A program made the position numbers and the translations under genes. Below, in pieces: positions 7,310 through 52,483 of a DNA stretch of 64,000 nt. The notes beneath the pieces are model-generated. The model did no database searches and had not been told where the DNA came from. It saw nothing but the letters and a program-made list of their open reading frames with translations. How positions within the stretch are numbered: position 1 is the stretch's first letter; the number at the start of each line of letters is the position of its first letter. This DNA is from Bacteroidota bacterium (lineage in GTDB: Bacteria > Bacteroidota > Bacteroidia > B-17B0 > Aurantibacillaceae), in assembly GCA_040386075.1 (NCBI GenBank), contig JAZKGE010000027.1:171403-235402 (forward strand). The letters are read 5' to 3'.

Positions 7310-7321
7310 AGTTGTATTAAT

Positions 7322-7352
7322 ACCCAAAATAGAATCAAATTCTATTTTGGGT
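7322..7352 (-). terminator. perfect 14-bp-stem hairpin between the Cys-rich gene and downstream thioredoxin-fold genes (possible intra-operon attenuator)
   Basis: ACCCAAAATAGAAT-caa-ATTCTATTTTGGGT read directly. No clean U-tract follows on the minus strand, so a partial terminator or processing site is more likely than a full stop. Confidence 0.45.
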
Positions 7353-7371
7353 AAAATTAAGAAGTGATATT

Positions 7372-7905
7372 TTATTCAGCAATTACTAATAATTCAGAGT
7401 TCAAAATTTGATAATCACCTTTCTTAATAATTAAAGTGTAGTCTTCAGATTCAACAGTGAAATCGTCAGGAATTGTAATGACCGCATTTTTTATTCGATT
7501 TATTTGTGTCATTTGTAAAACCGGGTCTCTATTTGGGTCAAAGGTTTCGTTATTAATTAGTCCTGTGGTCAAAGGTAGGCTAACTTTAACGGGTCCGTTA
7601 TTACCTGCGACAACCTTTGCTCCTTGAATAATTACACCTCCTTTACATGCTGTTATACACCAGCCATGATTTCCGCATTGGCCCCAGCATTCATATAAAA
7701 TTGTATAACATCCGTCCAGCCAACTGTGACCTAGAGTTGTGTATTTACAACACTCTAAGGGTTTATTTGCCGGATCTACTGGTTGGGGCGTTAAAATAAA
7801 TGTTTCAGTTATGATTTTTGAAGTTGCGAGCCTTGCTTCGTTTGGATTTCCGGCAAAAGTGTTGATACTTGTTGCCATGCAAAGTAACAGAATTAGTTTT
7901 TTCAT
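7372..7905 (-). CDS. secreted cysteine-knot-like protein of unknown family
   Basis: Signal peptide MKKLILLLCMATSINTFAG. Seven Cys within residues 52-87 (ECCKYTTLGHSWLDGCYTILYECWGQCGNHGWCITAC) and none in the remaining 90 aa. Confidence 0.6.
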   Translation of the reverse strand: MKKLILLLCMATSINTFAGNPNEARLATSKIITETFILTPQPVDPANKPLECCKYTTLGHSWLDGCYTILYECWGQCGNHGWCITACKGGVIIQGAKVVAGNNGPVKVSLPLTTGLINNETFDPNRDPVLQMTQINRIKNAVITIPDDFTVESEDYTLIIKKGDYQILNSELLVIAE

Positions 7906-8099
7906 TTTTAGTCTTATTTGGTTTTTTTTAAAATTTAATCATTACGCTTTGTAAATGATGTGCCATTAAAGTCTAGAATATAAGGGCACACAATATTACC
8001 AACTCATAAATAAATTTAAACTACCATTAAAGACGTTTTTAGCACATTTTGGAAAATGGATCATTAAGTTCGTAATAAGTCTGTTCACTAAAACAGTAA

Positions 8100-8768
8100 T
8101 CATAAATACAATTCTGCAAATTTCAAGTCATAAGGGTTTGTGATTTTTATATTCTCTGGATTTCCTCCTACCAGATTAATGCTTTCATCCATGCTTTCTA
8201 ACACGGTTGCATCATCAGTAAAAAATGGTGTATAGTCCTGTTCAAAGGCTTCTTTTATTTTTGATACCAAAAAACATTGAGGTGTTTGTACGATTTTATA
8301 ATCATCCCGGCTCACTGCCTTATTTATACTATTGGTTACCATGCGCATGCTTTCGTTAACAGGCACTACTGGTATGGCATTTCCTTTTTTGGCTGCTGTT
8401 TCAAAACAACGTTTAATGGTTTCAACGCTTACAAATGGCCTAGCTGCGTCATGTATGCCAACAATATCGTTTTTGTTTGTGATGCAATTCAATCCATTCT
8501 TTACCGAATGGAAACGTGTTTCGCCTCCAACAACGGTTTGTATATTCTTTTCCGGAAAATGTTCTGCCAGCATAAAATTGGCATCCGTTAAATAATCTTT
8601 ATGTACGCATACGATGACATTCATGAATTCATCAAATTCAAAAAATCTTTCAATGGTATGAATTAAAACAGGTTTGCCTTTTATTTCAATGAACTGCTTT
8701 GGTACGGATGATTGCATTCTTGTACCTGTTCCGCCGGCAACGATAATTATATTATATTGTGAATTCAT
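8100..8768 (-). CDS. ispD: 2-C-methyl-D-erythritol 4-phosphate cytidylyltransferase
   Basis: MNSQYNIIIVAGGTGTRMQSSVPKQFIEIKGKPVL and later VGIHDAARPF match IspD signatures. Start set to ATG 8768, 1 nt after the upstream gene's stop, rather than the longer track ORF. Confidence 0.9.
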   Translation of the reverse strand: MNSQYNIIIVAGGTGTRMQSSVPKQFIEIKGKPVLIHTIERFFEFDEFMNVIVCVHKDYLTDANFMLAEHFPEKNIQTVVGGETRFHSVKNGLNCITNKNDIVGIHDAARPFVSVETIKRCFETAAKKGNAIPVVPVNESMRMVTNSINKAVSRDDYKIVQTPQCFLVSKIKEAFEQDYTPFFTDDATVLESMDESINLVGGNPENIKITNPYDLKFAELYL

Positions 8769-26749: not shown

Positions 26750-28024
26750 TTAGTCTTTAAACAAAGGATATTTACTCATCATTGTGTTAATCTTCGTTTT
26801 CAATTTAGCCAGTTCTTTTGGATTGTCTTTGTTCTTTAAAGCAGCATCAATATAATCTACTACCTTCAGGCAGTCTTTTTCCTTGAGTCCGCGGCTTGTA
26901 ATAGCAGGTGTGCCAATACGGATGCCTGAGGTAACAAATGGAGATTTGTCATCAAAGGGAACCATATTCTTGTTTACTGTAATATCAGCTTCACCTAAAG
27001 CTTTCTCAGCTTCTTTACCGGTTAATCCTTTACTGCGTAGATCAATTAACATACAGTGATTGTCTGTTCCGCCTGAAATAATTTTATAACCTTTTTCTAT
27101 TAATGCTTTTGCCATTGTTTGTGCATTTTTGATGACCTGCACACAATATAACATATACTCATCACTTAAGCATTCGGCATATGCTACTGCTTTAGCAGCG
27201 ATCACATGCTCTAACGGGCCACCTTGGGTTCCCGGGAAAACAGCCATGTCTAAACAGGCACTCATCATTTTCAATTCTCCTTTAGGTGTTTTTTCTCCCA
27301 TTGGATTTTCAAAATCCTTGCCAATCATGATCATTCCACCTCTTGGTCCGCGTAATGTTTTGTGAGTAGTAGTAGTTACAATATGACAATGAGGTAATGG
27401 GTCGTTTAAAATACCTTTTGCAATTAAACCTGATGGGTGAGAAATATCAGCCATCAGTAAAGCCCCAACACTATCCGCTATTTTACGTAAGCGGACATAA
27501 TCCCAATCGCGGGAATAAGCAGATGCCCCACAAATGATCAATTTTGGTTTTTCTTTTTTAGCAGTTTCCTCAACTTTATCATAGTTTACTTGCCCTGTTT
27601 TTTCTTCAACACCATAAAATGTGGCGCGGTATAATTTACCCGAAAAGTTAACAGGAGAACCATGGGTTAAATGCCCACCATGCGACAAGTCAAAACCTAA
27701 AATAGTATCGCCTGGTTTCAAGCAAGCCAGCATAACAGCGGCATTTGCCTGTGCACCAGAATGGGGTTGTACGTTTACCCAAACTGCCCCAAACAACTCT
27801 TTTGCCCTGTCAATAGCAATTTGTTCTACTTTATCCACTACTTCACAACCGCCATAATAACGTTTGTTAGGCAGGCCTTCTGCGTATTTATTTGTTAAAA
27901 CGCTTCCCATTGCTTTCATAACCTGATCGCTTACGTAATTTTCGCTGGCAATCAGCTCAATTCCACGGGTTTGACGGTCTTTTTCTTCTTTAATAAGTTT
28001 AAAAATCGCAGTGTCTTTTTTCAT
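26750..28024 (-). CDS. glyA: serine hydroxymethyltransferase
   Basis: [26 protein letters not shown] and [14 protein letters not shown] (PLP-Lys motif) are all classic SHMT signatures. 424 aa. Confidence 0.95.
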
Positions 28025-28033
28025 AGTATATAA

Positions 28034-28507
28034 TTATTCAGGTTGAAATTTAGTGTAGAGTTTGGCAGAAGCAATAATAAAAAAAGCTACTAAAGGCGAC
28101 TGAGCAATACCCATTAGCCAACGGCTAAAAGTATATTCATCTCCATTTAATTGATTATTTATGATATAGTTACAAGCCATTGAAATACCCGACAAAACTA
28201 ACAATATTGCGTATATATAAATAACCCATCGCGCATTTTTTTTATCAGCACAGATCAATTTGACGGCAAAATAGCCTGTAAACAGATAAGCTAAAAAGTA
28301 CAATATAGTTAGGGGGTATTTTAGATAATAGAGCGTTGAGTAATCAAAATGTGTGATAAGCTCTAAACAGGGAGGTATTTTTATGTCTTCATTGTGATAA
28401 TATAATTTGAATAGCTGGTTGTTAATGTTTACAAACAAGAACTCCCGGCTAAAACCTAAAAAGGCAAAAAGGCTAATGAATATGATATATTTAAGGCTTC
28501 TTTTCAC
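28034..28507 (-). CDS. exosortase F system-associated membrane protein (candidate)
   Basis: 157-aa protein with 4 predicted TM segments. Its start overlaps the 3' end of the xrtF-like gene by 17 nt. Size and position match my memory of the XrtF-associated family. No motif-level proof. Confidence 0.55.
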   Translation of the reverse strand: MKRSLKYIIFISLFAFLGFSREFLFVNINNQLFKLYYHNEDIKIPPCLELITHFDYSTLYYLKYPLTILYFLAYLFTGYFAVKLICADKKNARWVIYIYAILLVLSGISMACNYIINNQLNGDEYTFSRWLMGIAQSPLVAFFIIASAKLYTKFQPE

Positions 28508-29033
28508 TTTTTTTTGTACCTGAAAATTTGTTTACCCACAGCATCCATAAGCCAAACACAGCACTATAAGCTATAAAAGTAAAAGTATAAGTGTGATTGA
28601 AATCCAAGTAAGTATAATTGTATTTTGCTATCAGGGCAAGAGCAATGATGCGAAGGATATTGATGGTGTGCACGATCAATATTCCCAATGGCAGATACCA
28701 TGATTTATTTTTAACATTTCCGGGATAGGCAATTACGAATATTGCAAACAAAAACATGAGGGTAATACCGTTACAGGGTCCGCCTATCCATACGCCATTT
28801 GAACCATCAATGCCAAATACTTGAAAATCATTTACCTCTTTACTGGCAAAGGTTTTATAGCCCAAAAGGTCAAAAATCCATTTGCAGATATTTATAATTT
28901 CACGGATGAAAAGCTGATCACCACGTGTATTTCGCTTAATGATAAATTCGTATAAAAAATAGCAAAAACCATATAAAAATGCGGCCTTTAAAATAAAAAA
29001 GTGAAATTTATTGTTTTTGATTTTCGCTAACAT
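28491..29033 (-). CDS. xrtF: exosortase family protein, XrtF-like
   Basis: Polytopic. Candidate catalytic Cys (VWIGGPCNGITLMF), Arg (HTINILRIIAL) and His (LDFNHTY) occur in exosortase order. Start set to Met36 of the track ORF (MLAKIKNN, nt 29033), just after the 29038-29068 terminator. Confidence 0.7.
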   Translation of the reverse strand: MLAKIKNNKFHFFILKAAFLYGFCYFLYEFIIKRNTRGDQLFIREIINICKWIFDLLGYKTFASKEVNDFQVFGIDGSNGVWIGGPCNGITLMFLFAIFVIAYPGNVKNKSWYLPLGILIVHTINILRIIALALIAKYNYTYLDFNHTYTFTFIAYSAVFGLWMLWVNKFSGTKKSEKKP

Positions 29034-29037
29034 AAGT

Positions 29038-29068
29038 AAAAAACCCCCCGCCAGCTGGCGGGGGGTTT
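29038..29068 (-). terminator. strong GC-only rho-independent terminator/attenuator
   Basis: CCCCCCGCCAGCTGGCGGGGGG (perfect 22-nt palindrome, 29044-29065), followed on the minus strand by T6. The xrtF ATG lies 5 nt beyond the T-run. Confidence 0.75.
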
Positions 29069-29073
29069 GGATT

Positions 29074-29286
29074 TTATAATGAAGATTCTTTATGTTTTGA
29101 GTAAAGCTTTCTGCCACCATATATAGCTCCGGCAGCAATTAGTAACGATATACCGCCGTCGATTGGAACACACGGAGGAGGCCAGCAATCTGGACTACTT
29201 CCAGAAGGAGGAGGAGGTGGTAAAGCTACACAAAGAGTGGTAAAACCAACTATGAAAAATAATATAAACAAAAACTTCGTATTCAT
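29074..29286 (-). CDS. 70-aa secreted peptide ending in an exosortase-type sorting signal (P-I-D-G-G + TM + basic tail)
   Basis: MNTKFLFILFFIVGFTTLCVA | LPPPPPSGSSPDCWPPPCV | PIDGG ISLLIAAGAIYGG RKLYSKHK. Has its own terminator and sits next to xrtF. Confidence 0.65.
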   Translation of the reverse strand: MNTKFLFILFFIVGFTTLCVALPPPPPSGSSPDCWPPPCVPIDGGISLLIAAGAIYGGRKLYSKHKESSL

Positions 29287-29364
29287 TTTTTAGCTATAAT
29301 GGATGTAAATATATAAAAAAATAATTGTAACTACAATTCTTTATTAAAAATCATGCCAAATTAG

Positions 29365-29372
29365 TATATTTG
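29365..29372 (+). promoter_or_regulatory. candidate Bacteroidota -7 promoter box (TAnnTTTG)
   Basis: TATATTTG lies 19 nt upstream of the wzc-like GTG start. I found no convincing -33 TTTG. Confidence 0.3.
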
Positions 29373-29390
29373 CTGATATAAAAATAGTTT

Positions 29391-31748
29391 GTGGAGCGCA
29401 AAAAAAACACAGCATTAATAAGCAATAATGATTTCAAGACAATTTGGAGAATAGTTTCCAAGAATTGGTATATACCCTTAATTTTTATTTCTGTATCTTA
29501 CTTAATCGGATATTTTTATATTTATAAATTAACCAATGTTTACCAGGCCTCTGTTGAATTATTGAAAAGTAACGACACTTATTATAAGGATAATTTAGTG
29601 TCTGATCAGGGCTTTTATGGATCAAATAAAACTTTCGTCGATAACTCTAACGAAATAAGAATTGTTAAATCCTACGATTTAATGAAAGAAACGATTCTTA
29701 AGCTAAAAGACAGAGTAGAAGTTTCTTATTATCTCGTAGGAAGAGTGAGAACAACTGAGCAGTTTGTAGGTATGCCTTTTGTTGTAAAAGTTAACTCGGT
29801 TAATTCGGCTATAAATGAACAGGTCATGCGTTTCCAGATCTTAAATTATGATGAGTACCAGATCACCTATTCCCTTGGTGGAATTGAATTTAAAAAAATA
29901 GGAAAATTTGGACAAAATTTAGTTGATATTGACTTTAACATTTTAGTAGAAAGGGAAAAGAAATTTAACAGGAATATAGCTAATGAGTTATCCAAATTAG
30001 ATTATCAGATAGTTGTACATGATATAGATAGGTTGGTTCACAATTTTCAGAGGTCATTGGTAGTTGAAAACCCTGACTATACAAATGTTTTGGTTTTAAA
30101 ATTTGAAGATATCCTGCCTGAAAGGGCTGTTTTACTGCTGGATACGCTTTCTAAAGCATATTTAAATAAGTCGTTAAATGCACGTTTTGAACTTAACGAA
30201 AGAACCATTAACTACATCGACAAGCAATTGCTTGAAGTAAGTACATCATTAAATGGCATCGAAGATACAATGCAATTGTATAAGCAAAAAAATAATATTT
30301 TGGATCTGGGATGGGAACGGGAAGATTTTTTTAAAAAATTAGCATCTTTTGAAGGCGAAAAAAATAATTTGACTTTAAAAATTAATGCTATTAATGATCT
30401 GGAAAAATATATTATTGAAGATAAAGATCCGGAGTTCTTGCCTCCTAATGTATTCCTAGTGGATAATGACCGTTTTATGATCCAATCAGTAAACGAGTTA
30501 TATTCGATGCAATTAAAATTAAATGAACAATTGGGATTTTCAAAAGAGAGCAATCCTAATATCATTGAAATCAAGGAAGGCATTAAAAAGCTGAAGCAAA
30601 GTATGTTACTATACATAAATAACACGCGCAATGCTAGTTATAAAATCATGGAAAATATACAGAATGAAGTGCAAAAGTATATTGTCCAGATCAAAAATAT
30701 TCCACCACAACAGCGGGATATCTTAAATATCCAACGAAAAGTTGCTGTCAATGAACAGTTATATAACTTCCTGCTACAACGTAAAGCTAACATAAAAATT
30801 GGTAAAGCATCAATAGTTCCTGAAATGAAAATAATCGATAGTCCAAGAAATCTTGGAGTTATCAGGCCGGATAAAAAAAACATTCAAACTGTGTTTTTAA
30901 TAATAGGAGCTGTTTTATCTGCGCTTATAATTGCAATCAGATTTTTCTTTTTTACTACTATCCAAACAGTTGAAGAGCTTAAAGAACAGACATTCTTGCC
31001 AATAATCGGAGACTTACCATTCCAAAAAGGAATATCAAACCTCGGATTTACAGTAGAGGAAAGTCCATCGTCTTATATTGCAGAAGGTTTCAGAACATTG
31101 AGAACCAATCTGCAGTATGTTATATTAAATTCTAATAAGAAAACTATTTTACTAACTTCTAATGCTCCGGGCGAGGGAAAAACGTTTAGTACCATAAATT
31201 TAGCTGCGCTTTTAGCTAAGAGTGGAAAGACAGTAGTAATGTTAGAATTGGATCTACATAAGCCACGTATTCAAAAAGCATTAGAAATGAATGCCGACAT
31301 CGGAATAAGCACTTTTATGGTAGGAGCAAATACTTTGGATGAAATTGTAAAACCTACCCTTGTTAAAAATTTGTATGTAATTTTATCCGGGCCCATTCCT
31401 CCTAATCCTTCAGATTTAGTACTATCAGAAAAACTAAAGGAACTAATTAATTACGCTAAAGAGAAATTTGACTATGTGCTGATTGACACGCCACCAATTG
31501 GTATGTTAGCTGATGCATCTTACCTGATGCAGTATTCAGACATTAACCTGATGGTGTTAAATACTAAGTTTGCTAATAAACACGTGCTTGATAATTTCCA
31601 CAAACTGGTTGAAAATAATGACATCAGTAATATGTATTTGATACTGAACGGCGTTAAAAGAAAAAGAAGTAAATATTATTATTCTCGTTATGGATATGGT
31701 TACGGTTATGGCTACGGCTATGGCTACGGTTATTCCAAAAAGTCATAA
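29391..31748 (+). CDS. wzc: polysaccharide co-polymerase / tyrosine autokinase (Wzc/GumC-type: Wzz domain + CpsD-like ATPase)
   Basis: N-terminal TM plus long coiled periplasmic region plus second TM. Walker A SNAPGEGKTFS, Walker A' VVMLELDLHKP, Walker B YVLIDTPP. C-terminal Tyr cluster YYYSRYGYGYGYGYGYGYGY. Confidence 0.85.
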   Translation: MERKKNTALISNNDFKTIWRIVSKNWYIPLIFISVSYLIGYFYIYKLTNVYQASVELLKSNDTYYKDNLVSDQGFYGSNKTFVDNSNEIRIVKSYDLMKETILKLKDRVEVSYYLVGRVRTTEQFVGMPFVVKVNSVNSAINEQVMRFQILNYDEYQITYSLGGIEFKKIGKFGQNLVDIDFNILVEREKKFNRNIANELSKLDYQIVVHDIDRLVHNFQRSLVVENPDYTNVLVLKFEDILPERAVLLLDTLSKAYLNKSLNARFELNERTINYIDKQLLEVSTSLNGIEDTMQLYKQKNNILDLGWEREDFFKKLASFEGEKNNLTLKINAINDLEKYIIEDKDPEFLPPNVFLVDNDRFMIQSVNELYSMQLKLNEQLGFSKESNPNIIEIKEGIKKLKQSMLLYINNTRNASYKIMENIQNEVQKYIVQIKNIPPQQRDILNIQRKVAVNEQLYNFLLQRKANIKIGKASIVPEMKIIDSPRNLGVIRPDKKNIQTVFLIIGAVLSALIIAIRFFFFTTIQTVEELKEQTFLPIIGDLPFQKGISNLGFTVEESPSSYIAEGFRTLRTNLQYVILNSNKKTILLTSNAPGEGKTFSTINLAALLAKSGKTVVMLELDLHKPRIQKALEMNADIGISTFMVGANTLDEIVKPTLVKNLYVILSGPIPPNPSDLVLSEKLKELINYAKEKFDYVLIDTPPIGMLADASYLMQYSDINLMVLNTKFANKHVLDNFHKLVENNDISNMYLILNGVKRKRSKYYYSRYGYGYGYGYGYGYGYSKKS
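31689..31733 (+). repeat. (Tyr-Gly)7-Tyr coding repeat at the Wzc C-terminus
   Basis: tat gga tat ggt tac ggt tat ggc tac ggc tat ggc tac ggt tat. The peptide repeat is perfect, but synonymous codons alternate at the DNA level. Confidence 0.85.
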
Positions 31749-33432: not shown

Positions 33433-35316
33433 ATGTTAACAGCATTAGGGAAATTATACAATAAAAAAATTGACGCAAGAGGGTTAGCTCTTTTCAGAAT
33501 AATTTATTCACTGGTATTGCTTGGTGAAGTTATTCAATTATTTTATTTCAGACATTTAATATATGACGTTGTTCCCAATGTTGAACTTTATGAAATAGAT
33601 GTAACTCCAGCGTTTATAGTTTGGATTATTTCGCTTATTTGCTTGGTATTTGGAGTCTTTACCAGAACAAGTGCAATCATTAACTATATCTGCTCTCTGT
33701 TTTTTATTGCTACAATCAAGTCCTATGAGTATCACATGTTTTATACTTATATGAGCATTAATTTTTTATTAATGTTTCTGCCGGTCTCAAGACAATGGTC
33801 ATTGGACAGATTATTTCAAAAGATCAAATATTCTAATACGAGGTTCGAATATATACCCCAAAAAGAGGTGTCCTCAATGGCCTATTTTATTCCGGTATTT
33901 ATTGGAATTGCTTTAGTGTATTTTGACTCGGTGCTATATAAATTAACGGACGATATGTGGTTAAAAGGCCTGGGAATATGGTTGCCAGCATCAATGCCTA
34001 TGACCACACAGGCTGCAGGCCATGCTGTTCTTAACCAGGAATGGCTGATGAAATTTTTAAGCCACTTTACAATTTTTTTCGAGTTTATATTTGTCTTTAT
34101 AATGTGGACTAAGCGTTTGCGTTGGTTTTGTGTTATTGTTGGTATAGGGTTGCACATTGGCATTTTGATAGAATTCCCTATTCCATTCTTTGCATTAGGT
34201 GTATGCGCAATTTACATACTTATGATGCCGGTAAGTATATATAGAAAGTTAAATAAATTTAAGATCAAAAACCCTAAATTGTTTTTTTATTACGACGCCG
34301 AGTGTCCTTTATGTGTAAGGACAAAAATAGTTATTCAACATTTCGATATCCTGAAGGCCGTTTCATTCTTATCAATACAGGGTCACGCAAAAAACCAGCC
34401 GGCATTAGATAGGATTGAAGAAGAAAAATTATACCAGGATATTTATAGTGTATCAAAAACAGGAAAAGTTTATAATGGAGTAAACACTTATATACAAGTA
34501 TTTAATGTTATTTTTTATTTTAAGCCTATATCATGGCTCTTAAGGATACCCGGAATTTATCATCTTGCTAAATTTGTTTATGCAAAAATTGCAAATGAAA
34601 GAGAAACCGAACGCTGTACTGAAGATACATGTGGTTACACTCCTCCTGTTGTACCTCAAAATAACAATGAAATAAAGCTATTAAAAACTTTTTCAGTTAA
34701 CGACTTGTACAGAAAAATAGTTGTAGGTTTCTTTTTAATACTCATTGCTCTTCAGTGTTTAGTATCGTTAAACTCACCACTAATAGTAAATGCCCGAAAA
34801 GCAGTAAAACTTAAAAATTCAGTTGTTGGAAAACATATTTCAAGTGTGAGTAATAACGTAAATAAAAATGCTAAAATATGGTTAGGTATAACTCACCATA
34901 GCCTATTTATGAAAACTCATTTTGATGAGTATGAACACATAATTAGTGTTAGTTATTGTAATAAAAAGTCAGGATTACAGAGATTGCCTATAATGGATGA
35001 ACATGGTATGCCTGGCAGTTATTTGTATGGATTTAATTGGGCTAAATGGACATTTAGAACCAATAGCCCCAAAATAGATAGTGTAAAATTAAGTTCGGGG
35101 ATACGATCTTTCACAGCATTTTGGGCACAAAAAAATAATGTCAGCTTATTAAACGATTCATTTATAGTTTTCGTTAAAAAAGTTCAGATACCTACCGGCT
35201 GGCAACGTGATTTTTTAAGAACCCAACTTTCTAAGTCAACGTGGATAGACGCCGGCAAAATTTATTGGAAGAATAAGTCCTATTATTCTAATATAAAAAA
35301 TATTGAAACGTTATAG
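33433..35316 (+). CDS. fusion protein: HTTM (vitamin-K-dependent gamma-carboxylase-like) membrane domain + DCC/DUF393-type CxxC thiol-disulfide oxidoreductase + unknown C-terminal domain
   Basis: IDARGLALFRIIYSLVLLGEVIQLFYF plus about 8 further hydrophobic spans (HTTM-like). FFYYDAECPLCVRTKIVIQHFD (DCC motif). One more TM (VVGFFLILIALQCLVSL), then about 200 aa of unknown family. Confidence 0.6.
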   Translation: MLTALGKLYNKKIDARGLALFRIIYSLVLLGEVIQLFYFRHLIYDVVPNVELYEIDVTPAFIVWIISLICLVFGVFTRTSAIINYICSLFFIATIKSYEYHMFYTYMSINFLLMFLPVSRQWSLDRLFQKIKYSNTRFEYIPQKEVSSMAYFIPVFIGIALVYFDSVLYKLTDDMWLKGLGIWLPASMPMTTQAAGHAVLNQEWLMKFLSHFTIFFEFIFVFIMWTKRLRWFCVIVGIGLHIGILIEFPIPFFALGVCAIYILMMPVSIYRKLNKFKIKNPKLFFYYDAECPLCVRTKIVIQHFDILKAVSFLSIQGHAKNQPALDRIEEEKLYQDIYSVSKTGKVYNGVNTYIQVFNVIFYFKPISWLLRIPGIYHLAKFVYAKIANERETERCTEDTCGYTPPVVPQNNNEIKLLKTFSVNDLYRKIVVGFFLILIALQCLVSLNSPLIVNARKAVKLKNSVVGKHISSVSNNVNKNAKIWLGITHHSLFMKTHFDEYEHIISVSYCNKKSGLQRLPIMDEHGMPGSYLYGFNWAKWTFRTNSPKIDSVKLSSGIRSFTAFWAQKNNVSLLNDSFIVFVKKVQIPTGWQRDFLRTQLSKSTWIDAGKIYWKNKSYYSNIKNIETL

Positions 35317-39501: not shown

Positions 39502-40634
39502 TTACATTCAATAAACCTTATTTAACAGGTAAAGAAAACGATTATATTGCTGGAGCGGTTGCCAGTATGAAAATTTCAGGCGATGGAAATTATACTAAAA
39601 TGTGCCATAAATTTTTTGAAGAAAAGTATGGCTTTAAAAAAGTACTTCTAACCACGTCCTGTACCGATGCCTTAGAAATGGCAGCATTATTACTGGATAT
39701 AAAAGAAGGGGATGAGGTCATCGCACCATCATATACATTTGTATCTACAGTAAACGCATTTGTTTTGCGTGGAGCCAAAATAGTATTTGTGGATAGTGGT
39801 AGTGATAATCCGAACATGGATGTTAGTGCTATTGAAGCATTGATCACCGACAGAACAAAAGTTATCTTGCCTGTGCATTATGCTGGTATAGCCTGTAACA
39901 TGACAAGGATCATGGAAATAGCCGATAAACATGATTTGTTTGTTGTGGAAGACGCTGCACAGGCTATTGATTCATATTACAAGGATAGACCGTTAGGGTC
40001 TATAGGTCACTTATCAGCCTTTTCATTCCACGAAACAAAAAATATCATTTCTGGTGAAGGTGGTATGTTAGTTATTAATGATGAACGTTTTATTAAACGT
40101 GCAGAAATAATTCGGGAAAAAGGAACAAATCGTTCTTCATTTTTTAGAGGCGAAGTTGACAAGTATGGCTGGGTTGACCTTGGTTCATCATTTTTGCCTT
40201 CAGACATAATTGCGGCATTCTTATTTGCTCAGCTTGAAAACCTGGATGATATTCAACAAAAACGAAAGACTATTTGGGATCAATATAACCAGGGTTTAAA
40301 AAAACTTAGTGATAACGGTAAATTAAAATTACCGCTTATTCCTCGTGACGCAACTAATAATGCTCATATGTATTATGTTATTTGCAAAAATTTAGATGAG
40401 CGAACCCGGTTGATCAAACATCTTAAGGAGAGTGACATTCATGCGGTTTTTCACTATCTCAGTCTGCACAAAAGCCCTTATTATTTAACAAAACACGATG
40501 GTCGTGTACTTAGTAATTCTGATTATTATTCCGAAAGCCTTCTCAGACTTCCCTTTTATTTCGAATTAAATAAGGAGCAGGTAAACAGTGTAGTTGATAG
40601 CATTAATTCATTTTATAATGAACAGCCTCAATAA
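39498..40634 (+). CDS. DegT/DnrJ/EryC1-family PLP aminotransferase, WecE (dTDP-4-amino-4,6-dideoxyhexose transaminase)-like
   Basis: FNKPYLTGKENDYI, TSCTDALEMAALLL, and SFHETKNIISGEGGML with the PLP lysine, as in WecE. Confidence 0.85.
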   Translation: MITFNKPYLTGKENDYIAGAVASMKISGDGNYTKMCHKFFEEKYGFKKVLLTTSCTDALEMAALLLDIKEGDEVIAPSYTFVSTVNAFVLRGAKIVFVDSGSDNPNMDVSAIEALITDRTKVILPVHYAGIACNMTRIMEIADKHDLFVVEDAAQAIDSYYKDRPLGSIGHLSAFSFHETKNIISGEGGMLVINDERFIKRAEIIREKGTNRSSFFRGEVDKYGWVDLGSSFLPSDIIAAFLFAQLENLDDIQQKRKTIWDQYNQGLKKLSDNGKLKLPLIPRDATNNAHMYYVICKNLDERTRLIKHLKESDIHAVFHYLSLHKSPYYLTKHDGRVLSNSDYYSESLLRLPFYFELNKEQVNSVVDSINSFYNEQPQ

Positions 40635-42327
40635 CTGGTATAACCCCAAAAAGCTACCTGGTATTATAATGATAATATCATTAGTTGTGTTTTTTTTATA
40701 CTTGTCACCATTCTTTATATATGGTGAAATGGTACATATATGGCCTTATGATAATTTAAATTCAAATGTGGTATGGAATAAAATCATAGCACAAAGTGGT
40801 AGTATTTTTTCATCTAATGAAACTATTATTCCAAATATTATGGGGGGCGTACCACGTAGTTGTTTTTATTGTTCGGAATTTAGTGCATTACTTTGGTTGT
40901 ATTATTTTTTCTCACCATTTACTGCTTATGTGTTAAACATTGTACTGTTGCATTCCGTTGCTTTTTTCGGAGCCTATATGTTGAGTAAAAAGTATTTTTT
41001 GAAAGATCAATCTTATTTATTTGCCTTCCCGGTTGCCCTGTGTTTTGCCTTAATCCCTTTTTGGTCTCCGGCATGTTTAAGTATTGCAGGGCAGCCATTG
41101 TTACTGTATGCACTTTTTAACATCAAGACAAAAGATTCAAGTTATTTAGATTGGCTTATTGTTATGTTGTTTCCATTATTCTCCTTTTTTGCATTTAGTA
41201 CTTTGTTTTTTATTGTTGCTATCGGCTTATTTTTTATATACGATACTATCAGATATAAAAAAATCAATATCGCTTTTTTTATGGCCATTTCGCTCTTATT
41301 GGTTATGTGCATACTTGCCGAGTATAGACTATTTATAAGTTTTTTTATTAAGCCATCTTATGTATCTCACCGGGTTGAATTCCAGTTGGATGAAAGACCA
41401 TTAACTTTCATTGAGGTACTTAAAACAACGGTTGAAGCATTTAAAACAGGACAGCATCACGCCAGTTCTTTACACTATCCTATTTTATGTGTTATAGTTC
41501 TAATAGCTTTAGTTGTTGGGTTTATAAAGAAAAGTAAATATCTAAAACCAGTGATTTATTTGCTTATGGTTGCCGGCTCAATTATGCTGTTTTATAAGCT
41601 TACAAATTGGGGAGTGTATGTCGAAAAAACAAGAGGCAACAAGCTGTTAACTGAATTTAAGATCGAAAGGTTTTATACGTTGTATCCATTAATATGGTTG
41701 TTGATTCTTTCTGCCTCCGTTTTTATCGTGGCCACATTTAAAAATAGAGTACTAAATGGCGTGATCTTTATTTTGCTTTCTGCTCAAATTGCATATCTGT
41801 TTTCTAATTCTATAGAATTTAAATACTCACTACGGGATTATGTTTTGCATTCTAAAGATGTTCCTTCTAAATATAAAACATTTAGAGAGTTTTATTCTGA
41901 AGATTTATTTACAAAAATTAAAACTATTATAGGAAAGCCTCAATCTGAATATAGGGTTGTTAACCTTGGGGTTGATCCAGCTATTACTGCCTATAATGGT
42001 TTTTATACGTTAGATATGTATATGGCAGTTTATCCCCTGGACTACAAGAAAAAATTCAGAAGAATTATGGAAAAGGAATTAGATAAGGATAATGCCAAAA
42101 GGAAAACGTTTGACAATTGGGGAAGCCAATGCTACTTGATTTCATCAGAAATTGCTAAGCCAGAAATTGATAATTTGGAATTAAATTTTGATATGCTTAA
42201 AGAAATGAACTGCCAGTTTATTTTTTCAGTTCGGAAAATAAATAATGCATCAGAAAATTTAAGTTTTGTATCCAAAGTACCCGGAAACAGATATCTTAAA
42301 TATATTTATGTGTATAAAGTTATATGA
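40618..42327 (+). CDS. large polytopic membrane protein (about 12 TM + soluble C-terminal domain), unknown family; candidate GT-C-like transferase or polymerase
   Basis: About 570 aa with hydrophobic spans over the first approx 400 aa and a soluble tail (YRVVNLGVDPAITAYNGFYTLDMYMAVYP...). Start set to ATG 40618, overlapping the WecE-like stop. Confidence 0.55.
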   Translation: MNSLNNWYNPKKLPGIIMIISLVVFFLYLSPFFIYGEMVHIWPYDNLNSNVVWNKIIAQSGSIFSSNETIIPNIMGGVPRSCFYCSEFSALLWLYYFFSPFTAYVLNIVLLHSVAFFGAYMLSKKYFLKDQSYLFAFPVALCFALIPFWSPACLSIAGQPLLLYALFNIKTKDSSYLDWLIVMLFPLFSFFAFSTLFFIVAIGLFFIYDTIRYKKINIAFFMAISLLLVMCILAEYRLFISFFIKPSYVSHRVEFQLDERPLTFIEVLKTTVEAFKTGQHHASSLHYPILCVIVLIALVVGFIKKSKYLKPVIYLLMVAGSIMLFYKLTNWGVYVEKTRGNKLLTEFKIERFYTLYPLIWLLILSASVFIVATFKNRVLNGVIFILLSAQIAYLFSNSIEFKYSLRDYVLHSKDVPSKYKTFREFYSEDLFTKIKTIIGKPQSEYRVVNLGVDPAITAYNGFYTLDMYMAVYPLDYKKKFRRIMEKELDKDNAKRKTFDNWGSQCYLISSEIAKPEIDNLELNFDMLKEMNCQFIFSVRKINNASENLSFVSKVPGNRYLKYIYVYKVI

Positions 42328-42891: not shown

Positions 42892-43746
42892 ATGATGCAA
42901 ACAAAAGAAGATTGGGATTTGATCATTAGACCCCGAAGCAAATGGTTTCAACTAGACTTACATGCCATTTGGAAATATCGCGACTTACTGATGTTATTAG
43001 TAAAACGTGATTTTGTTGCGGTATATAAGCAAACTATACTAGGACCGTTGTGGTTTTTTATTCAGCCGGTACTTACCGCCTTGACATTTACATTTATTTT
43101 TGGACGGGTGGCACAATTAAGTACAGAGAAAATGCCGCCTATGGCATTTTATTTGGCGGGCATCACGTTATGGACTTATTTTTCAGATTGTTTCATAAAA
43201 ACTTCCAATACGTTTATTGCCAATGCCGGAGTATTTGGAAAAGTATATTTTCCAAGACTAATTATTCCTTTATCTATATTGGTATCCAATTTAATGAAGC
43301 TTGGCATTCAATTTTTGATCTTTCTTTGTGTATGGATGTATTATTACAATACGACCGATAAAATACATCCGCAATGGCAATATATGTGGGTATTGCCGAT
43401 ACTGATTATTATGATGGCTGGTTTAGGTTTTGGTTTTGGCGTTTTAATTTCTTCATTAACCACTAAGTATCGGGACTTTACTTTTTTAATTGGATTTGGA
43501 GTGCAGTTATTAATGTACGGAAGCTCTATTGTTCTCCCAATTTCTACGATGTCGCCTAAGGTGCAATTTTTAATGAAGTTAAATCCATTAACATCGGTTA
43601 TCGAAGGCTTTAAATTTATTTTTTTAGGCTCTGGTTTTTTTGAATTTAATTGGTTGTTATATTGCTTTGGTTTTATGATAGTGCTTGTTGCCCTATCGGT
43701 TATAATATTTAATAAAGTAGAAAAATCCTTTATGGATACCGTTTAA
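42892..43746 (+). CDS. wzm: ABC-2-type polysaccharide/O-antigen export permease
   Basis: 284 aa with 6 TM. RDLLMLLVKRDFVAVYKQTILGPLWFFIQP is the typical ABC-2 N-terminal signature. Confidence 0.8.
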   Translation: MMQTKEDWDLIIRPRSKWFQLDLHAIWKYRDLLMLLVKRDFVAVYKQTILGPLWFFIQPVLTALTFTFIFGRVAQLSTEKMPPMAFYLAGITLWTYFSDCFIKTSNTFIANAGVFGKVYFPRLIIPLSILVSNLMKLGIQFLIFLCVWMYYYNTTDKIHPQWQYMWVLPILIIMMAGLGFGFGVLISSLTTKYRDFTFLIGFGVQLLMYGSSIVLPISTMSPKVQFLMKLNPLTSVIEGFKFIFLGSGFFEFNWLLYCFGFMIVLVALSVIIFNKVEKSFMDTV

Positions 43747-43748
43747 TC

Positions 43749-45044
43749 ATGAGTAATACAGTTATAAAAGTAGAGGGACTTGGCAAACAGTATCGCTTAG
43801 GAAAAGTTGGTGCTGCTACACTGTCATCTGATTTGAATAGATGGATAGCCAAAGTGAGAGGCAAGGAAGATCCTAATTTAAAAATTGGCGAAGTAAATGA
43901 TAGAACCAAAGTTAGCACCAGTAATTTGGTGTGGGCTTTAAAAGACATTAATTTTGAAGTAAAGCAAGGTGATGTGCTTGGTATTATCGGTAAAAATGGT
44001 GCTGGAAAATCAACGTTATTAAAAATCTTATCAAGAGTTACTGCTCCAACAATCGGCGACATTAAAGTGAAAGGTCGTATAGCCAGCTTACTGGAAGTAG
44101 GAACAGGATTTCATCCGGAGTTAAGTGGGAGGGAGAACATTTATTTAAATGGTGCTATCCTTGGAATGACCAAACAGGAAATCAAAAATAAATTCGATGA
44201 GATAGTAGATTTTAGCGGTGTGGAACGTTATATTGATACTCCGGTTAAACGTTATTCATCAGGAATGTACGTGCGATTGGCATTTGCCGTAGCAGCTCAT
44301 CTGGAGCCAGAGATTCTGATCGTAGATGAAGTATTGGCTGTAGGTGATGCTGAGTTTCAAAAAAAGTGCCTGGGTAAAATGAAAGATGTAAGCGGCCAGG
44401 GACGTACGGTTTTATTTGTAAGCCATAATATGGCGGCAGTAAAAGGATTGTGTACAACAGGAATTGTTTTAGAACAGGGTACTATCAAGTTTAATGGAAC
44501 TAGTGAGGGAGCAATAGATTTTTACAGCCGTTCGGCATATAATTTATCTGAAATACCTTTGGAAGAAAGGAAAGACAGAAAAGGAAATGGTAAACTCAGA
44601 ATAAAGGATATCATATACGTTAATAACCTTGGTACAAGAGTGGGTGATTTGACCTCCGGCGAGTATTACAAAATACAATTTCAGTTTGAACGTTACCAGC
44701 AGATAGACTTAAAGCAATTAACGTTTGTATTGCAATTTAAAAATGAAAGCGATGAGATCGTAACTACCATAGCAACGGACGAGCAGGGAACAGTATTTAA
44801 CACCATCGGAAACACAGGCTGTTTTGAGATTGAAATTCCTAGACTTAATTTTAGAGAGGGTAGGTATCTTATAAATTTTATGATCAGCGAAAAGCTTTCT
44901 TTTAACACTCCACATGTTACCATTGATTATTTAGCAGATGCAGCCACTATGAATGTTATCAGGGGCGATTACTGGAATTCGGGAATATTAAACAGGCCTA
45001 AAGGTTTTATTCAGGAATCTTCAATTAAAATAATAGATCTTTAG
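43749..45044 (+). CDS. wzt: polysaccharide ABC exporter ATP-binding protein with C-terminal Wzt-type glycan-binding extension
   Basis: Walker A GIIGKNGAGKSTLLK, signature YSSGM, Walker B ILIVDEVLAVGD, H-loop FVSHN. About 180 extra C-terminal residues, beta-rich. Confidence 0.9.
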   Translation: MSNTVIKVEGLGKQYRLGKVGAATLSSDLNRWIAKVRGKEDPNLKIGEVNDRTKVSTSNLVWALKDINFEVKQGDVLGIIGKNGAGKSTLLKILSRVTAPTIGDIKVKGRIASLLEVGTGFHPELSGRENIYLNGAILGMTKQEIKNKFDEIVDFSGVERYIDTPVKRYSSGMYVRLAFAVAAHLEPEILIVDEVLAVGDAEFQKKCLGKMKDVSGQGRTVLFVSHNMAAVKGLCTTGIVLEQGTIKFNGTSEGAIDFYSRSAYNLSEIPLEERKDRKGNGKLRIKDIIYVNNLGTRVGDLTSGEYYKIQFQFERYQQIDLKQLTFVLQFKNESDEIVTTIATDEQGTVFNTIGNTGCFEIEIPRLNFREGRYLINFMISEKLSFNTPHVTIDYLADAATMNVIRGDYWNSGILNRPKGFIQESSIKIIDL

Positions 45045-46922: not shown

Positions 46923-47939
46923 ATGTTAGATTTAAACGGAAAATCTCTTTTAATAACAGGAGGAACTGGTTCTTTAGGAAAAGAACTTACTAAAACTATT
47001 CTGCAAAACTGGCCGGATATTAAACGACTTGTAATATTTTCAAGAGATGAACAGAAACAGTTTCAAATGGATCAGGAATTCCCTTCCTCTAAGCATAAGG
47101 CCATTCGATACTTCATTGGGGATGTAAGGGATCTTGAACGCTTAAAGCGAGCTTTCATTGGTATTGATTACGTTATTCACGCAGCTGCCATGAAACATGT
47201 GCATATTGCAGAATATAATCCGGATGAATGTGTTAAAACCAATATTGGCGGAGCAGAAAACGTTATTAAAGCGGCACTGGATTCAAATATTACAAAAGTG
47301 GTGGCCCTGTCAACAGATAAGGCATGTGCGCCAATTAATTTGTACGGTGCAACAAAATTAACTTCCGATAAATTATTTATTGCTGCTAATAATATCAAAG
47401 GTCATAAAGATATCAAGTTTTCAGTTGTTAGATATGGTAATGTAATGGGTTCAAACGGTTCAGTAATTCCTTTTTTCCTGAACAAAAGAAAAGAAGGTGT
47501 GTTGCCAATAACAGATCCCAATATGACACGTTTTAATATCTCGTTGCAGGGTGGTGTTGACATGGTGCTTCATGCATTAGATGCAGCCTGGGGTGGAGAA
47601 TTATTTGTGCCAAAGATACCTTCTTATAAAATTATGGATGTTGCAAAAGCAATAGGACCAAATTGCGAGCATAAAATAAACGGTATTCGACCAGGAGAAA
47701 AAATTCATGAGGAAATGATAACCAGCTCCGACTCATTTACAACTTATGATCTGGGGAAATATTATGTGATCCTTCCTCAGGTTACTAATTGGAAACTGGA
47801 TGAGTACATGAAACACTTTAACGCTAAACTGGTTCCTCAAGGATTTCATTACACTTCAGAAAACAATAGTGAATGGGAAACTGTTGAAGGATTAAGAAAA
47901 TTGATTGTTGAACACGTTGACCCAACTTTTAAACCATAA
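46923..47939 (+). CDS. pseB: UDP-N-acetylglucosamine 4,6-dehydratase (inverting)
   Basis: LNGKSLLITGGTGSLGKELTKTIL...VIFSRDEQKQFQM, YGATKLTSDKLF and RYGNVMGSNGSVIPFF match PseB/FlaA1. Followed by pseC. Confidence 0.85.
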   Translation: MLDLNGKSLLITGGTGSLGKELTKTILQNWPDIKRLVIFSRDEQKQFQMDQEFPSSKHKAIRYFIGDVRDLERLKRAFIGIDYVIHAAAMKHVHIAEYNPDECVKTNIGGAENVIKAALDSNITKVVALSTDKACAPINLYGATKLTSDKLFIAANNIKGHKDIKFSVVRYGNVMGSNGSVIPFFLNKRKEGVLPITDPNMTRFNISLQGGVDMVLHALDAAWGGELFVPKIPSYKIMDVAKAIGPNCEHKINGIRPGEKIHEEMITSSDSFTTYDLGKYYVILPQVTNWKLDEYMKHFNAKLVPQGFHYTSENNSEWETVEGLRKLIVEHVDPTFKP

Positions 47940-47943
47940 TTAA

Positions 47944-49092
47944 ATGATTCCATACGGTAGACAAAATATTACTGAGGATGATATTAATGCTGTTATAACA
48001 GCATTGAAATCAGATTTCCTGACACAAGGCCCTGAGATAGCGGTGTTTGAAAAAGCATTTGCTGAGTATATAGGATGTAAGTATGCTGTGGCTGTATCAA
48101 ATGGAACGGCTGCGTTACATTTATGCACCATGGCGTTAGGAGTTGATGAGAATTCAAGAGTTATCACAAGCCCGATTACCTTCGCTGCTTCTGCTAATTG
48201 CGTTCGTTATTGCAATGGGGAAGTTTATTTTGCTGATATTGATCCTGAGACTTATTTACTGGACATCACTAAAGTGCGGGCATTATTGGAAAAGCAGCCT
48301 AAAGGCTACTTTCAGGGAATAATTCCCGTAGATTTTGCAGGTAACGCGGTTAATCTTGAAGAATTCAGAAAGCTGGCAGATGAATTTGGTTGTTGGATCA
48401 TTGAAGATGCTTGTCACGCACCGGGTGGCTATTTTATAGATAGTAAAGGAACCCAGCAGTTTTGTGGAAACAGCCGGTTTGCCGATCTGGCTATTTTTTC
48501 TTTTCATCCGGTTAAACATATAGCGTGCGGCGAAGGAGGAATGGTAACTACTAATGATGAAGCTTTATATCATAAACTGATAAAGCTTCGTACTCATGGC
48601 ATCACTAAGGATCCTGAGTTGATGCACAAAAATGATGGAGGTTGGTATTATGAAATGCAAGAGTTAGGGTATAATTATCGAATTACAGATTTTCAGGCTG
48701 CCTTGGGAACCTCTCAATTAAAGAGAGCAGACGAAGGTTTAAAAAGAAGAAGAGAGATAGCTCGCATTTACGAAGATGCTTTTAAATCAAATAAAAATAT
48801 AAAGGCACAATCCGGAGTTGTTGATGGACACGCCTATCACTTATATATTATTGAAGTAGAAAAACGTAAAGACTTGTATGACTTCTTAAGATCAAAAGAT
48901 GTTTTTTGTCAGGTTCATTATATTCCTGTTCATACCTTACCTTATTATGAAAGCTTAGGATGGAAACAGGGAGATTTTAAAAATGCAGAACAATACTACA
49001 AAGGTTGTTTAAGTTTGCCTATGTATCCTACCTTAACCAATGAACAACAAATGTTTGTGATCAACCTCATTAACTCGTTTTTAGGTGAATAA
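47944..49092 (+). CDS. pseC: UDP-4-amino-4,6-dideoxy-N-acetyl-beta-L-altrosamine transaminase
   Basis: MIPYGRQNITEDDINAVITALKSDFLTQGP and SFHPVKHIACGEGG (PLP Lys). Sits between pseB and pseF. Confidence 0.85.
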   Translation: MIPYGRQNITEDDINAVITALKSDFLTQGPEIAVFEKAFAEYIGCKYAVAVSNGTAALHLCTMALGVDENSRVITSPITFAASANCVRYCNGEVYFADIDPETYLLDITKVRALLEKQPKGYFQGIIPVDFAGNAVNLEEFRKLADEFGCWIIEDACHAPGGYFIDSKGTQQFCGNSRFADLAIFSFHPVKHIACGEGGMVTTNDEALYHKLIKLRTHGITKDPELMHKNDGGWYYEMQELGYNYRITDFQAALGTSQLKRADEGLKRRREIARIYEDAFKSNKNIKAQSGVVDGHAYHLYIIEVEKRKDLYDFLRSKDVFCQVHYIPVHTLPYYESLGWKQGDFKNAEQYYKGCLSLPMYPTLTNEQQMFVINLINSFLGE

Positions 49093-49777
49093 CGTTGCAA
49101 TTATAACAGCTCGTGGCGGCAGTAAACGCATACCAAAAAAAAATATAAAAGATTTTTTGGGAAAACCTATTATTGCCTATTCAATTGAAACAGCCTTAAA
49201 TTCAGGTTTGTTTGATTATGTCATGGTGTCTACTGACGACAATGAAATTGCAGAAGTAGCAAAAAAATACGGCGCTCAAGTTCCCTTTGTAAGAAGCAAA
49301 CAAACATCAGATGATTTTACAGGTACTGCCGATGTTGTGATAGAAGTATTACATGATTTGAAAAAAATAGGAAAAGAATTTATAAACGCCTGTTGCATTT
49401 ATCCAACGGCGCCTTTTATATCTAAACAAACATTAAATGAATCGTATCAATTACTCATTGGTAAAAAATTTGATTCTGTGTTTCCAGTTTGTTCTTTTTC
49501 ATACCCAATTCAAAGGGCCTTAGAAATCAATGATTCAAAAACAAAAATGGTTTGGGGAGAAAATTTGAATAAACGTTCGCAGGATTTACCAGCAAGATAT
49601 CACGATGCTGGACAATTTTATTGGATGAATGTGGAATCTTTTTTAATTGAGAAAAAATTATTCACTAACAATACAGGCTCTGTCATCTTAGATGAATTAC
49701 AAGTACAAGACATAGATAACGAAACCGATTGGAAATTGGCGGAATTAAAATTCAATTTATTATTTTCTAGTAATTAA
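49085..49777 (+). CDS. pseF: pseudaminic acid cytidylyltransferase
   Basis: VAIITARGGSKRIPKKNIKDFLGKPIIAYSI and RSQDLPARYHDAGQFYW are CMP-NulO synthetase motifs. GTG start overlaps the pseC stop. Confidence 0.8.
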   Translation: MNNVAIITARGGSKRIPKKNIKDFLGKPIIAYSIETALNSGLFDYVMVSTDDNEIAEVAKKYGAQVPFVRSKQTSDDFTGTADVVIEVLHDLKKIGKEFINACCIYPTAPFISKQTLNESYQLLIGKKFDSVFPVCSFSYPIQRALEINDSKTKMVWGENLNKRSQDLPARYHDAGQFYWMNVESFLIEKKLFTNNTGSVILDELQVQDIDNETDWKLAELKFNLLFSSN

Positions 49778-49778
49778 A

Positions 49779-52476: not shown

Positions 52477-52483
52477 TTTAAAG

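Follow-up and report, generated by a model that had tools for sequence, protein, structure and literature searches.

In a 64,000-nucleotide stretch of Bacteroidota DNA (contig JAZKGE010000027.1, positions 171,403 to 235,402; hereafter the window), three co-oriented genes on the minus strand constitute a PID-CTERM/XrtX sorting module. They encode a mini-protein of 70 amino acids (aa) that ends in a PID-CTERM sorting signal, the exosortase XrtX and a small membrane partner. Taking all lines of analysis jointly, we consider it reasonably probable that the peptide is cut at its PID motif and passed to an acceptor in the cell envelope. Rather than displaying a protein, the module probably yields a small envelope peptide. 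A previous sequence-only reading of the window had proposed an exosortase module with a minute substrate at this place and had assigned it to exosortase F (XrtF).

The mini-substrate gene (29074-29286, minus strand) comprises 70 codons and a stop codon; the open reading frame (ORF), its parts and its translation were confirmed as they had been quoted. According to sequence rules, the N-terminus of the product is predicted to be a signal peptide and the passenger behind it to be exported. The signal peptide (residues 1-21, MNTKFLFILFFIVGFTTLCVA; 29224-29286, minus strand) displays n-, h- and c-regions, positions -1 and -3 are occupied by small residues, and a heuristic cleavage rule places the cut of signal peptidase I after C-V-A. 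The passenger (residues 22-40, LPPPPPSGSSPDCWPPPCV; 29167-29223, minus strand) consists of a Pro run, a variable Gly/Ser linker and the motif CWPPPC. Its 19 residues with a single Cys pair agree with the previous estimate of about 20 residues and two Cys. The tripartite signal follows at residues 41-66 (29089-29166, minus strand): PIDGG at 41-45, a hydrophobic helix of 13 aa at 46-58 (ISLLIAAGAIYGG) that directly abuts the motif, and the basic cluster RKLYSKHK at 59-66, which stops 4 residues short of the stop codon.

The NCBIfam models were those of release 20 and were used with their curated cutoffs. The mini-protein scored 45.8 bits with the PID_CTERM model NF046080 (cutoff 26, E = 3.7e-12), and its residues 40-64 aligned to positions 1-25 of the 25-position profile. 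The name PID-CTERM, tentatively given in the sequence-only reading, proved to match both NF046080 and Pfam PF28310. The latter is precomputed on a protein identical to ours (P0001) and on all of its 222 close homologs, which are 67-101 aa long; a copy of Pfam-A that lacks PF28310 gave no match to the 70-aa ORF. Given the E-value of the profile match, the 222 close relatives and the conserved synteny described below, the observation lies far beyond chance. As judged from the model match and from conservation, the PID-CTERM sorting signal on the 70-aa ORF is bona fide.

The pattern of conservation within the clade (217 members) is informative. P41, D43, G45, L49 and G53 are invariant, and Y56, G57 and K60 are conserved in at least 98% of members; the helix thus holds a G53xxxG57 packing motif. 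In the passenger, CWPPPC is invariant and the Pro run is 92-97% conserved, with a linker whose length varies. The signal peptide is variable, with an entropy of 2-3 bits per position, while the remainder of the mini-protein is conserved. Because the tail is so much better conserved than the signal peptide, specific recognition is implied. A lipoprotein reading of Cys19 was rejected: the preceding T-T-L is unlike a lipobox and Cys19 occurs in just 40% of relatives. No second PID-CTERM ORF was found in the 64-kb window. In the deposited annotation of this metagenome-assembled genome (MAG) of an uncultured Bacteroidota member the mini ORF has neither an accession nor a name on record.

The polytopic protein encoded next, by xrtX (28491-29033, minus strand), has 180 aa. 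We place its start at the ATG at 29033 because a longer, TTG-started ORF would cross the terminator described below. The previously noted exosortase-like order of Cys, Arg and His stood up well. The residues lie in the motifs GGPC87NG, NILR128I and DFNH147, and the product passes the exosortase/archaeosortase signature TIGR04178 with 52.5 bits (cutoff 23). C87, N88 and H147 are invariant in 59 XrtX and XrtF sequences, R128 is present in 58 of them, and in 39 further homologs C87, R128 and H147 are all invariant. These three are the candidate catalytic residues: a triad of Cys, Arg and His is suspected to carry out catalysis in exosortases and archaeosortases (Haft, bioRxiv 10.1101/2023.06.07.544157). 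The AlphaFold2 model (pLDDT 84.7, pTM 0.78) is helical and polytopic, with long helices at 9-35, 90-102, 107-138 and 145-170; it further contains an amphipathic helix (38-57) and a beta-sheet of small size. Neither sequence nor fold comparison detected a solved homolog (best Foldseek E = 1.3). Both termini are basic and, following the positive-inside rule, Cys87, Arg128 and His147 would be placed towards the periplasmic side.

The assignment to XrtF did not hold. Exosortase X (NF046081) is the top-scoring exosortase subfamily, with 181 bits narrowly above its cutoff of 170, and the XrtF model comes second with 78.9 bits, under its cutoff of 90. The EpsH-type models fail as well (TIGR02602, 9.2 bits against 105.55; Pfam Exosortase_EpsH, 21.8 against 25.7). 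On these scores the enzyme is exosortase X, or XrtX, a member of the sister family of XrtF. JGI and some GenBank records call close homologs 'exosortase family protein XrtF', others 'archaeosortase/exosortase family protein'; since older public annotations use the name XrtF, the mislabel is understandable.

The partner gene (28034-28507, minus strand, GTG start) encodes 157 aa and overlaps the end of xrtX by 17 nt, as had been described. It was taken for the XrtF-associated protein, which our searches did not bear out: there is no match to TIGR04127 at E <= 1, a model with which a true XrtF partner (locus L051) scores 143.7 bits. The partner instead weakly resembles the XrtX-associated family NF046082, in a full-length alignment (1-150 against 1-146 of 147, E = 4.6e-9). 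Between the partner families of XrtX and XrtF, hhalign gave a weak collinear match (probability 47.7%, E = 1.9e-4) and jackhmmer made no connection. In the MAG annotation the partner is entered as a hypothetical protein of 89 aa (MES2762430.1), against 157 aa for the form that is conserved in 44 loci. With the partner deposited as a fragment and the mini ORF unrecorded, two of the three module genes are apparently mis-annotated or unannotated. The next gene on the same strand, glyA for serine hydroxymethyltransferase (26750-28024), starts 9 nt past the stop codon of the partner. It is probably co-transcribed with the module, as an odd but persistent housekeeping neighbour.

Gene order in relatives was examined by a scan for XrtX in 185,579 species genomes, which yielded 58 loci, 46 of them XrtX-like and 12 genuine XrtF. 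The XrtX-like loci all come from Bacteroidota MAGs, and the XrtF loci from Flavobacteriaceae (including Lacinutrix, Gelidibacter and Bizionia). Synteny of the 70-aa ORF with the exosortase, which the sequence-only reading had proposed as a check, was examined with a profile of the mini-protein: in 44 of 46 XrtX loci a mini ORF lies directly upstream of xrtX on the same strand, and in 43 it is intact. The series of mini-gene, xrtX and partner likewise persists in 43 of the 46. A partner homolog follows xrtX directly in 44 of the 46 as well. Homologs of the Wzc-like gene that flanks our module lie within 6 kb in 41 (divergent upstream in 39), and such a homolog was also seen in L060. Homologs of glyA also lie within 6 kb in 42 XrtX loci, in most of which they keep the position after the partner. 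Loci with XrtX identities down to about 50% (L001-L039, L057) retain the full order (divergent Wzc-like gene, mini-gene, xrtX, partner, glyA). In more remote XrtX loci (38-43% identity) the mini-gene persists, but its passengers, of 5-25 residues, are unrelated, such as NCNPN, DLPPGGDEGGDPV, PPPMPGPPVI and SSFPPSSFGSMNDL; that of L040 has about 5 residues. Beyond the cis mini-gene, no further PID-CTERM ORF occurs within 6 kb of any xrtX.

When look-ups were centred on mini-genes, an exosortase was found next door in L059, L060 and L065. The exosortases beside the divergent mini-genes of L059 (781-1335) and L065 (2701-3264) match XrtX best, with 123 and 135 bits, under the cutoff of 170. PID-CTERM therefore pairs with a clade somewhat wider than the trusted XrtX set of NCBI. 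The XrtF cutoff of 90 is narrowly passed by L044 (93.5 bits) and L065 (91.7 bits). The curated boundary between XrtX and XrtF does not match mini-gene presence.

Several individual loci deserve mention. In L001 (5815-5962), the mini-protein has lost its PID motif and helix through an internal deletion or frameshift. In L036 (5867-6021), just about 150 nt separate the Wzc-like gene and xrtX. In L044 there is no mini-gene upstream of position 883, and the enzyme is borderline between XrtX and XrtF. The mini-gene of L061 and L062 (3001-3267) follows the gene of a 1,499-aa cargo protein of type IX secretion (T9SS; Por_Secre_tail) and encodes an acidic CDPF...C passenger with a PIDGGAS tail. Those of L066 (1164-1355) and L067 (852-1043) have a PAP2 phosphatase gene as neighbour.

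A very small passenger characterises PID-CTERM proteins as a family and is not peculiar to the studied locus. A profile of the mature region (alignment A2) retrieved 7,564 proteins at E <= 1, with lengths of 66-97 aa among the 120 matches listed. A second profile, made from the 31-residue tail alone (alignment A3), was run against 1.84 billion representative proteins and, at E <= 0.001, matched 1,661 clusters; 148 of the best 150 among them are 40-121 aa long. The tail score is independent of passenger size, and full-size PID-CTERM proteins must therefore be rare. Two longer matches, P0218 (351 aa) and P0237 (408 aa), were discarded as PID-CTERM proteins, the match consisting of internal helix-plus-Lys repeats with no PID motif. 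Both are Lys-rich and soluble-looking proteins with three internal repeats 'AGGxALAAGAxYGAKKL.DxKKKK', which equal the helix-plus-basic half of a PID-CTERM tail.

A simple signal-peptidase rule applied to 143 representatives predicts passengers with a median of 14 residues (5th-95th percentile 9-25), composed of 24% Pro, 15% Gly and 13% Asp. The predicted passengers hold no Cys in 110 clusters, two in 29 and one in 4, of which at least 2 are mis-cut by the rule. Occurrence of Cys in pairs speaks for export and for a loop closed by a disulfide bond. From clade to clade the passengers show hardly any sequence conservation, and many clades have no polyproline. Gln is the predicted N-terminal residue of many passengers, and the Q-rule of Bacteroidetes would turn it into pyroglutamate (PMC5837995, PMC10653852).

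An intrinsic-terminator-like hairpin with a T-run (29041-29068, minus strand) separates the mini-gene from xrtX, beginning 5 nt past the mini-gene stop codon, in agreement with the terminator mentioned there earlier. It has a 12-bp stem with 9 G-C pairs and a folding energy of -26 kcal/mol (z = -4.9; none of 200 shuffles folds as well), and is strikingly GC-rich against the 34% G+C of the window. At least 32 of 45 related loci have a hairpin with T-run in the corresponding position, and 27 different stem-loop sequences occur among them. Position is thus kept while the stem-loops differ, which means that the structure is conserved and the sequence is not. Conservation of the terminator suggests that more substrate than enzyme is produced.

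Upstream of the mini-gene lies a divergent intergenic region (29287-29390) with 17% G+C, shared with the Wzc-like gene. The gap to that gene, which begins at 29391, is exactly 104 bp, as stated before. From its sequence, the region likely holds the promoters of both divergent genes. A perfect Bacteroidetes -7 motif, TATATTTG, is found at 29365-29372 (plus strand), 19 nt before the GTG of the Wzc-like gene, and TAATTTG, one base short of the motif, at 29357-29363 (minus strand), about 70 nt before the ATG of the mini-gene; both are consensus matches only.

A reasonably probable mechanism is as follows. The 70-aa pre-protein would be exported by Sec and cut by signal peptidase I after CVA. The short C-terminal helix would then keep the cut product in the inner membrane in an N-out orientation, with the basic tail in the cytoplasm and the PID motif at the membrane's periplasmic face, and C34 and C39 of CWPPPC may close a small disulfide loop. 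XrtX, presumably a cysteine enzyme with four transmembrane (TM) helices and with Cys87, Arg128 and His147 facing the periplasm, would recognise V-P-I-D-G-G together with the GxxxG helix and cut at or beside the PID motif. Subsequently, it would transfer the new C-terminus of the peptide, now of about 19-21 residues, to an acceptor in the envelope, most likely a membrane lipid or, alternatively, a glycan from the adjacent locus. We propose transfer because of the analogy with archaeosortase A (ArtA)/PGF-CTERM and rhombosortase/GlyGly-CTERM. In ArtA the PGF-CTERM helix is removed together with lipid attachment, and Cys173, Arg214 and Arg253 were required experimentally (PMC9263693). The hairpin would let the substrate transcript exceed that of enzyme and partner. 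The final product would be a peptide conjugate that is very short, rich in Pro, resistant to proteases and connected with the biology of the capsule or exopolysaccharide (EPS).

A number of points weigh against this proposal. The cleavage of the mini-protein, the cleavage site, the disulfide and the acceptor are all things that we infer, and the membrane topology is deduced from charge distribution and predicted helices. One-step transpeptidation is unproven even for an archaeosortase (bioRxiv 10.1101/2023.06.07.544157). Our literature search found no paper that names PID-CTERM or XrtX and no experiment on either. The partner reaches 36.1 bits with NF046082, below the curated equivalog cutoff of 75, and partners of relatives also remain under it in every locus tested (30-44 bits). 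Two loci (L036 and L044) keep xrtX with no adjacent mini-gene, and in a third (L001) the mini-gene is disrupted. Conversely, the mini-genes of L061/L062 and L066/L067 have no exosortase within 3 kb, and their products are all above the PID_CTERM cutoff. Trans-encoded substrates thus exist, and one substrate per enzyme is not a strict rule.

There are also other ways to read the module. XrtX might be a plain protease that hydrolyses the peptide of about 20 residues free into the periplasm or medium, where it would act as a signal, antimicrobial or matrix additive. The layout does resemble a peptide-precursor operon (small gene, leaky terminator, processing enzyme). Further, the passengers are short, Pro-rich and often Gln-first (pyroglutamate, PMC5837995), as stable free peptides would be, and the lack of proof for one-step transpeptidation in the enzyme family (bioRxiv 10.1101/2023.06.07.544157) suits this explanation. 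We nevertheless regard it as unlikely, since the conserved module has no outer-membrane peptide exporter, since cleavage by ArtA and rhombosortase is coupled to lipid attachment, and since poor conservation of passengers between clades would be unusual for a signal recognised by a receptor. To an uncleaved mini-protein we likewise give only a small chance. It would be a single-pass subunit or regulator that docks via its GxxxG helix into a complex of XrtX, partner and Wzc, with PID as docking motif. The tail would then be the functional part, which the passenger of about 5 residues in L040 allows, and it is true that the TM helix with the flanking PIDGG and KK is the best-conserved part of the mini-protein and that adjacency to the Wzc-like gene is conserved. 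Yet the tail has the exact tripartite, extreme C-terminal form of cleaved signals and passes a curated sorting-domain model, the adjacent enzyme retains every catalytic residue, which a pure scaffold does not need, and the passenger itself is under strong constraint in the CWPPPC clade.

Still less can be said for the mini ORF as mainly a cis-regulatory leader, in which polyproline translation dependent on elongation factor P (EF-P) and the terminator would together form an attenuator of xrtX. PPPPP and WPPP runs are ribosome-stalling motifs, and the hairpin begins so close to the stop codon (5 nt) that a terminating ribosome would overlap its 5' arm. On the other hand, the encoded product has both a complete signal peptide and a membrane helix that is conserved, and the ORF has thousands of relatives (the 7,564 proteins and 1,661 clusters given above), many clades of which have no polyproline, and some copies lie far from any exosortase gene. 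We therefore think attenuation very improbable as the account of this ORF; it is unlikely as its main function, and regulation could be an added layer. That the module is an XrtF system after all is hardly credible. XrtF is indeed the second-best model and the name given to homologs in public records, L044 and L065 narrowly pass its cutoff, and the partners of both systems are weakly collinear. These points are outweighed by the scores of the enzyme, above the cutoff for XrtX and below that for XrtF, by the partner with no TIGR04127 match, and by the 12 true XrtF loci, within 6 kb of which there is neither a PID-CTERM ORF nor a PID-like tail.

Going beyond the sorting module itself, we tentatively suggest that XrtX systems, instead of serving protein display, are dedicated peptide ligases, which convert mini-precursors made on ribosomes into protease-resistant conjugates of 10-25 residues with a structural role in assembly or anchoring of Bacteroidota capsule or EPS; this idea is possible but distinctly doubtful. 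In the studied clade the conjugate may be a polyproline rod capped by the CWPPPC disulfide loop, in the form of a lipopeptide or of a peptide-capped glycan.

The system is already catalogued in Pfam and NCBIfam, as database models (NF046080, NF046081, NF046082 and PF28310). Our module agrees with the curated one in that signal and enzyme pass the cutoffs, in the layout of the trio and in the Bacteroidota host. It differs in its divergent partner, and the invariant CWPPPC passenger marks a sub-clade. The sister family XrtF (TIGR04128) has about 30% identity to XrtX, the same size, the C/N/R/H pattern and an LWMLWVNKF C-terminal motif, and a genuine member (L051) scores 242 bits with its model. 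The XrtF system too includes a small multi-pass partner (TIGR04127) whose gene overlaps the 3' end of the XrtF gene. In contrast to XrtX loci, however, there is no upstream mini-gene, and a divergent GAF-domain gene replaces the Wzc-like gene upstream. For F. johnsoniae (Flavobacterium johnsoniae), identification of XrtF substrates is listed as future work (PMC10936215).

PEP-CTERM/XrtA (EpsH) shares with our module the tripartite C-terminal signal, the enzyme superfamily and the tie to exopolysaccharide loci (bioRxiv 10.1101/2023.06.07.544157). XrtA is, however, a much larger enzyme of the EpsH type with 8 TM helices, and the motif of its substrates is P-E-P instead of P-I-D. It serves many full-size, often glycosylated proteins per genome, whereas PID-CTERM substrates have 40-120 aa and passengers of 9-25 residues. 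ArtA/PGF-CTERM of Haloferax volcanii belongs to a homologous enzyme family and is the sole member with experimental proof of helix cleavage and lipid attachment (PMC9263693); it differs in being archaeal, in its large S-layer and surface glycoprotein substrates and in an archaeal lipid as acceptor. As far as sequence comparison tells, the module works like PEP-CTERM/XrtA and PGF-CTERM/ArtA but belongs to neither of them, nor to XrtF. Pilin, fimbrial and RiPP-precursor operons follow the same expression logic (short precursor gene, leaky hairpin, enzyme genes at low level). This likeness concerns operon design only, with no homology; the studied enzyme is an intramembrane exosortase.

For the questions of which acceptor exosortases use and whether they are true transpeptidases (bioRxiv 10.1101/2023.06.07.544157), a single substrate of about 20 residues and defined mass would be a near-ideal probe. 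A C-terminal modification of such a peptide could be read by intact-mass spectrometry, without digesting a large glycoprotein. It is unusual for a whole exosortase clade to serve mini-proteins with passengers of 9-25 residues. The mini-substrates, the Wzc-type neighbour and insulation by the terminator suggest that a small peptide takes part in capsule or EPS biology, and the carriers are widespread, mostly uncultured Bacteroidota of freshwater and soil. If the ligase reading is true, the same logic could explain the missing substrates of XrtF, with relevance to Flavobacterium biofilm.

Because the Wzc-like gene keeps its place beside the module, the system is tied to the biology of surface polysaccharides. 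A further tie comes from F. johnsoniae, which needs xrtF and its partner to form biofilms and to colonise surfaces (PMC10936215). In the window, the Wzc-like gene (29391-31748, plus strand) encodes a polysaccharide co-polymerase/tyrosine kinase with GNVR and AAA_31 (P-loop) domains, and is the first gene of a glycan locus that runs on the plus strand from 29391 to the window end and exceeds 34 kb. Besides the Wzc-like gene, it includes NusG/UpxY-like, glycosyltransferase, sugar aminotransferase, ABC-2/Wzt exporter and nonulosonic-acid genes. The ABC-2/Wzt-type exporter and the full nonulosonic-acid set lie at 42892-45044 and 46923-53524 (plus strand), the set consisting of a PseB-like dehydratase, a DegT aminotransferase, a cytidylyltransferase, a triple-GNAT protein, PIG-L and NeuB. 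A 577-aa DUF6044 protein is encoded at 40594-42327 (plus strand).

Within the same locus, a fusion of HTTM with a DCC1-like thiol-disulfide oxidoreductase is encoded at 33433-35316 (plus strand), 4 kb from the gene of the Cys-pair peptide. In the distant locus L046, the gene right behind that of the XrtX partner encodes an HTTM homolog (6940-8664). As a general partner of the Cys-containing peptide, HTTM/DCC1 was rejected, as it was found only at the studied locus and in L046. Finally, the C-terminus of the Wzc-like protein (31677-31748, plus strand) reads YYYSRYGYGYGYGYGYGYGYSKKS, a long Tyr-Gly repeat that replaces the Tyr cluster of BY-kinases; the same tail is present in L036.

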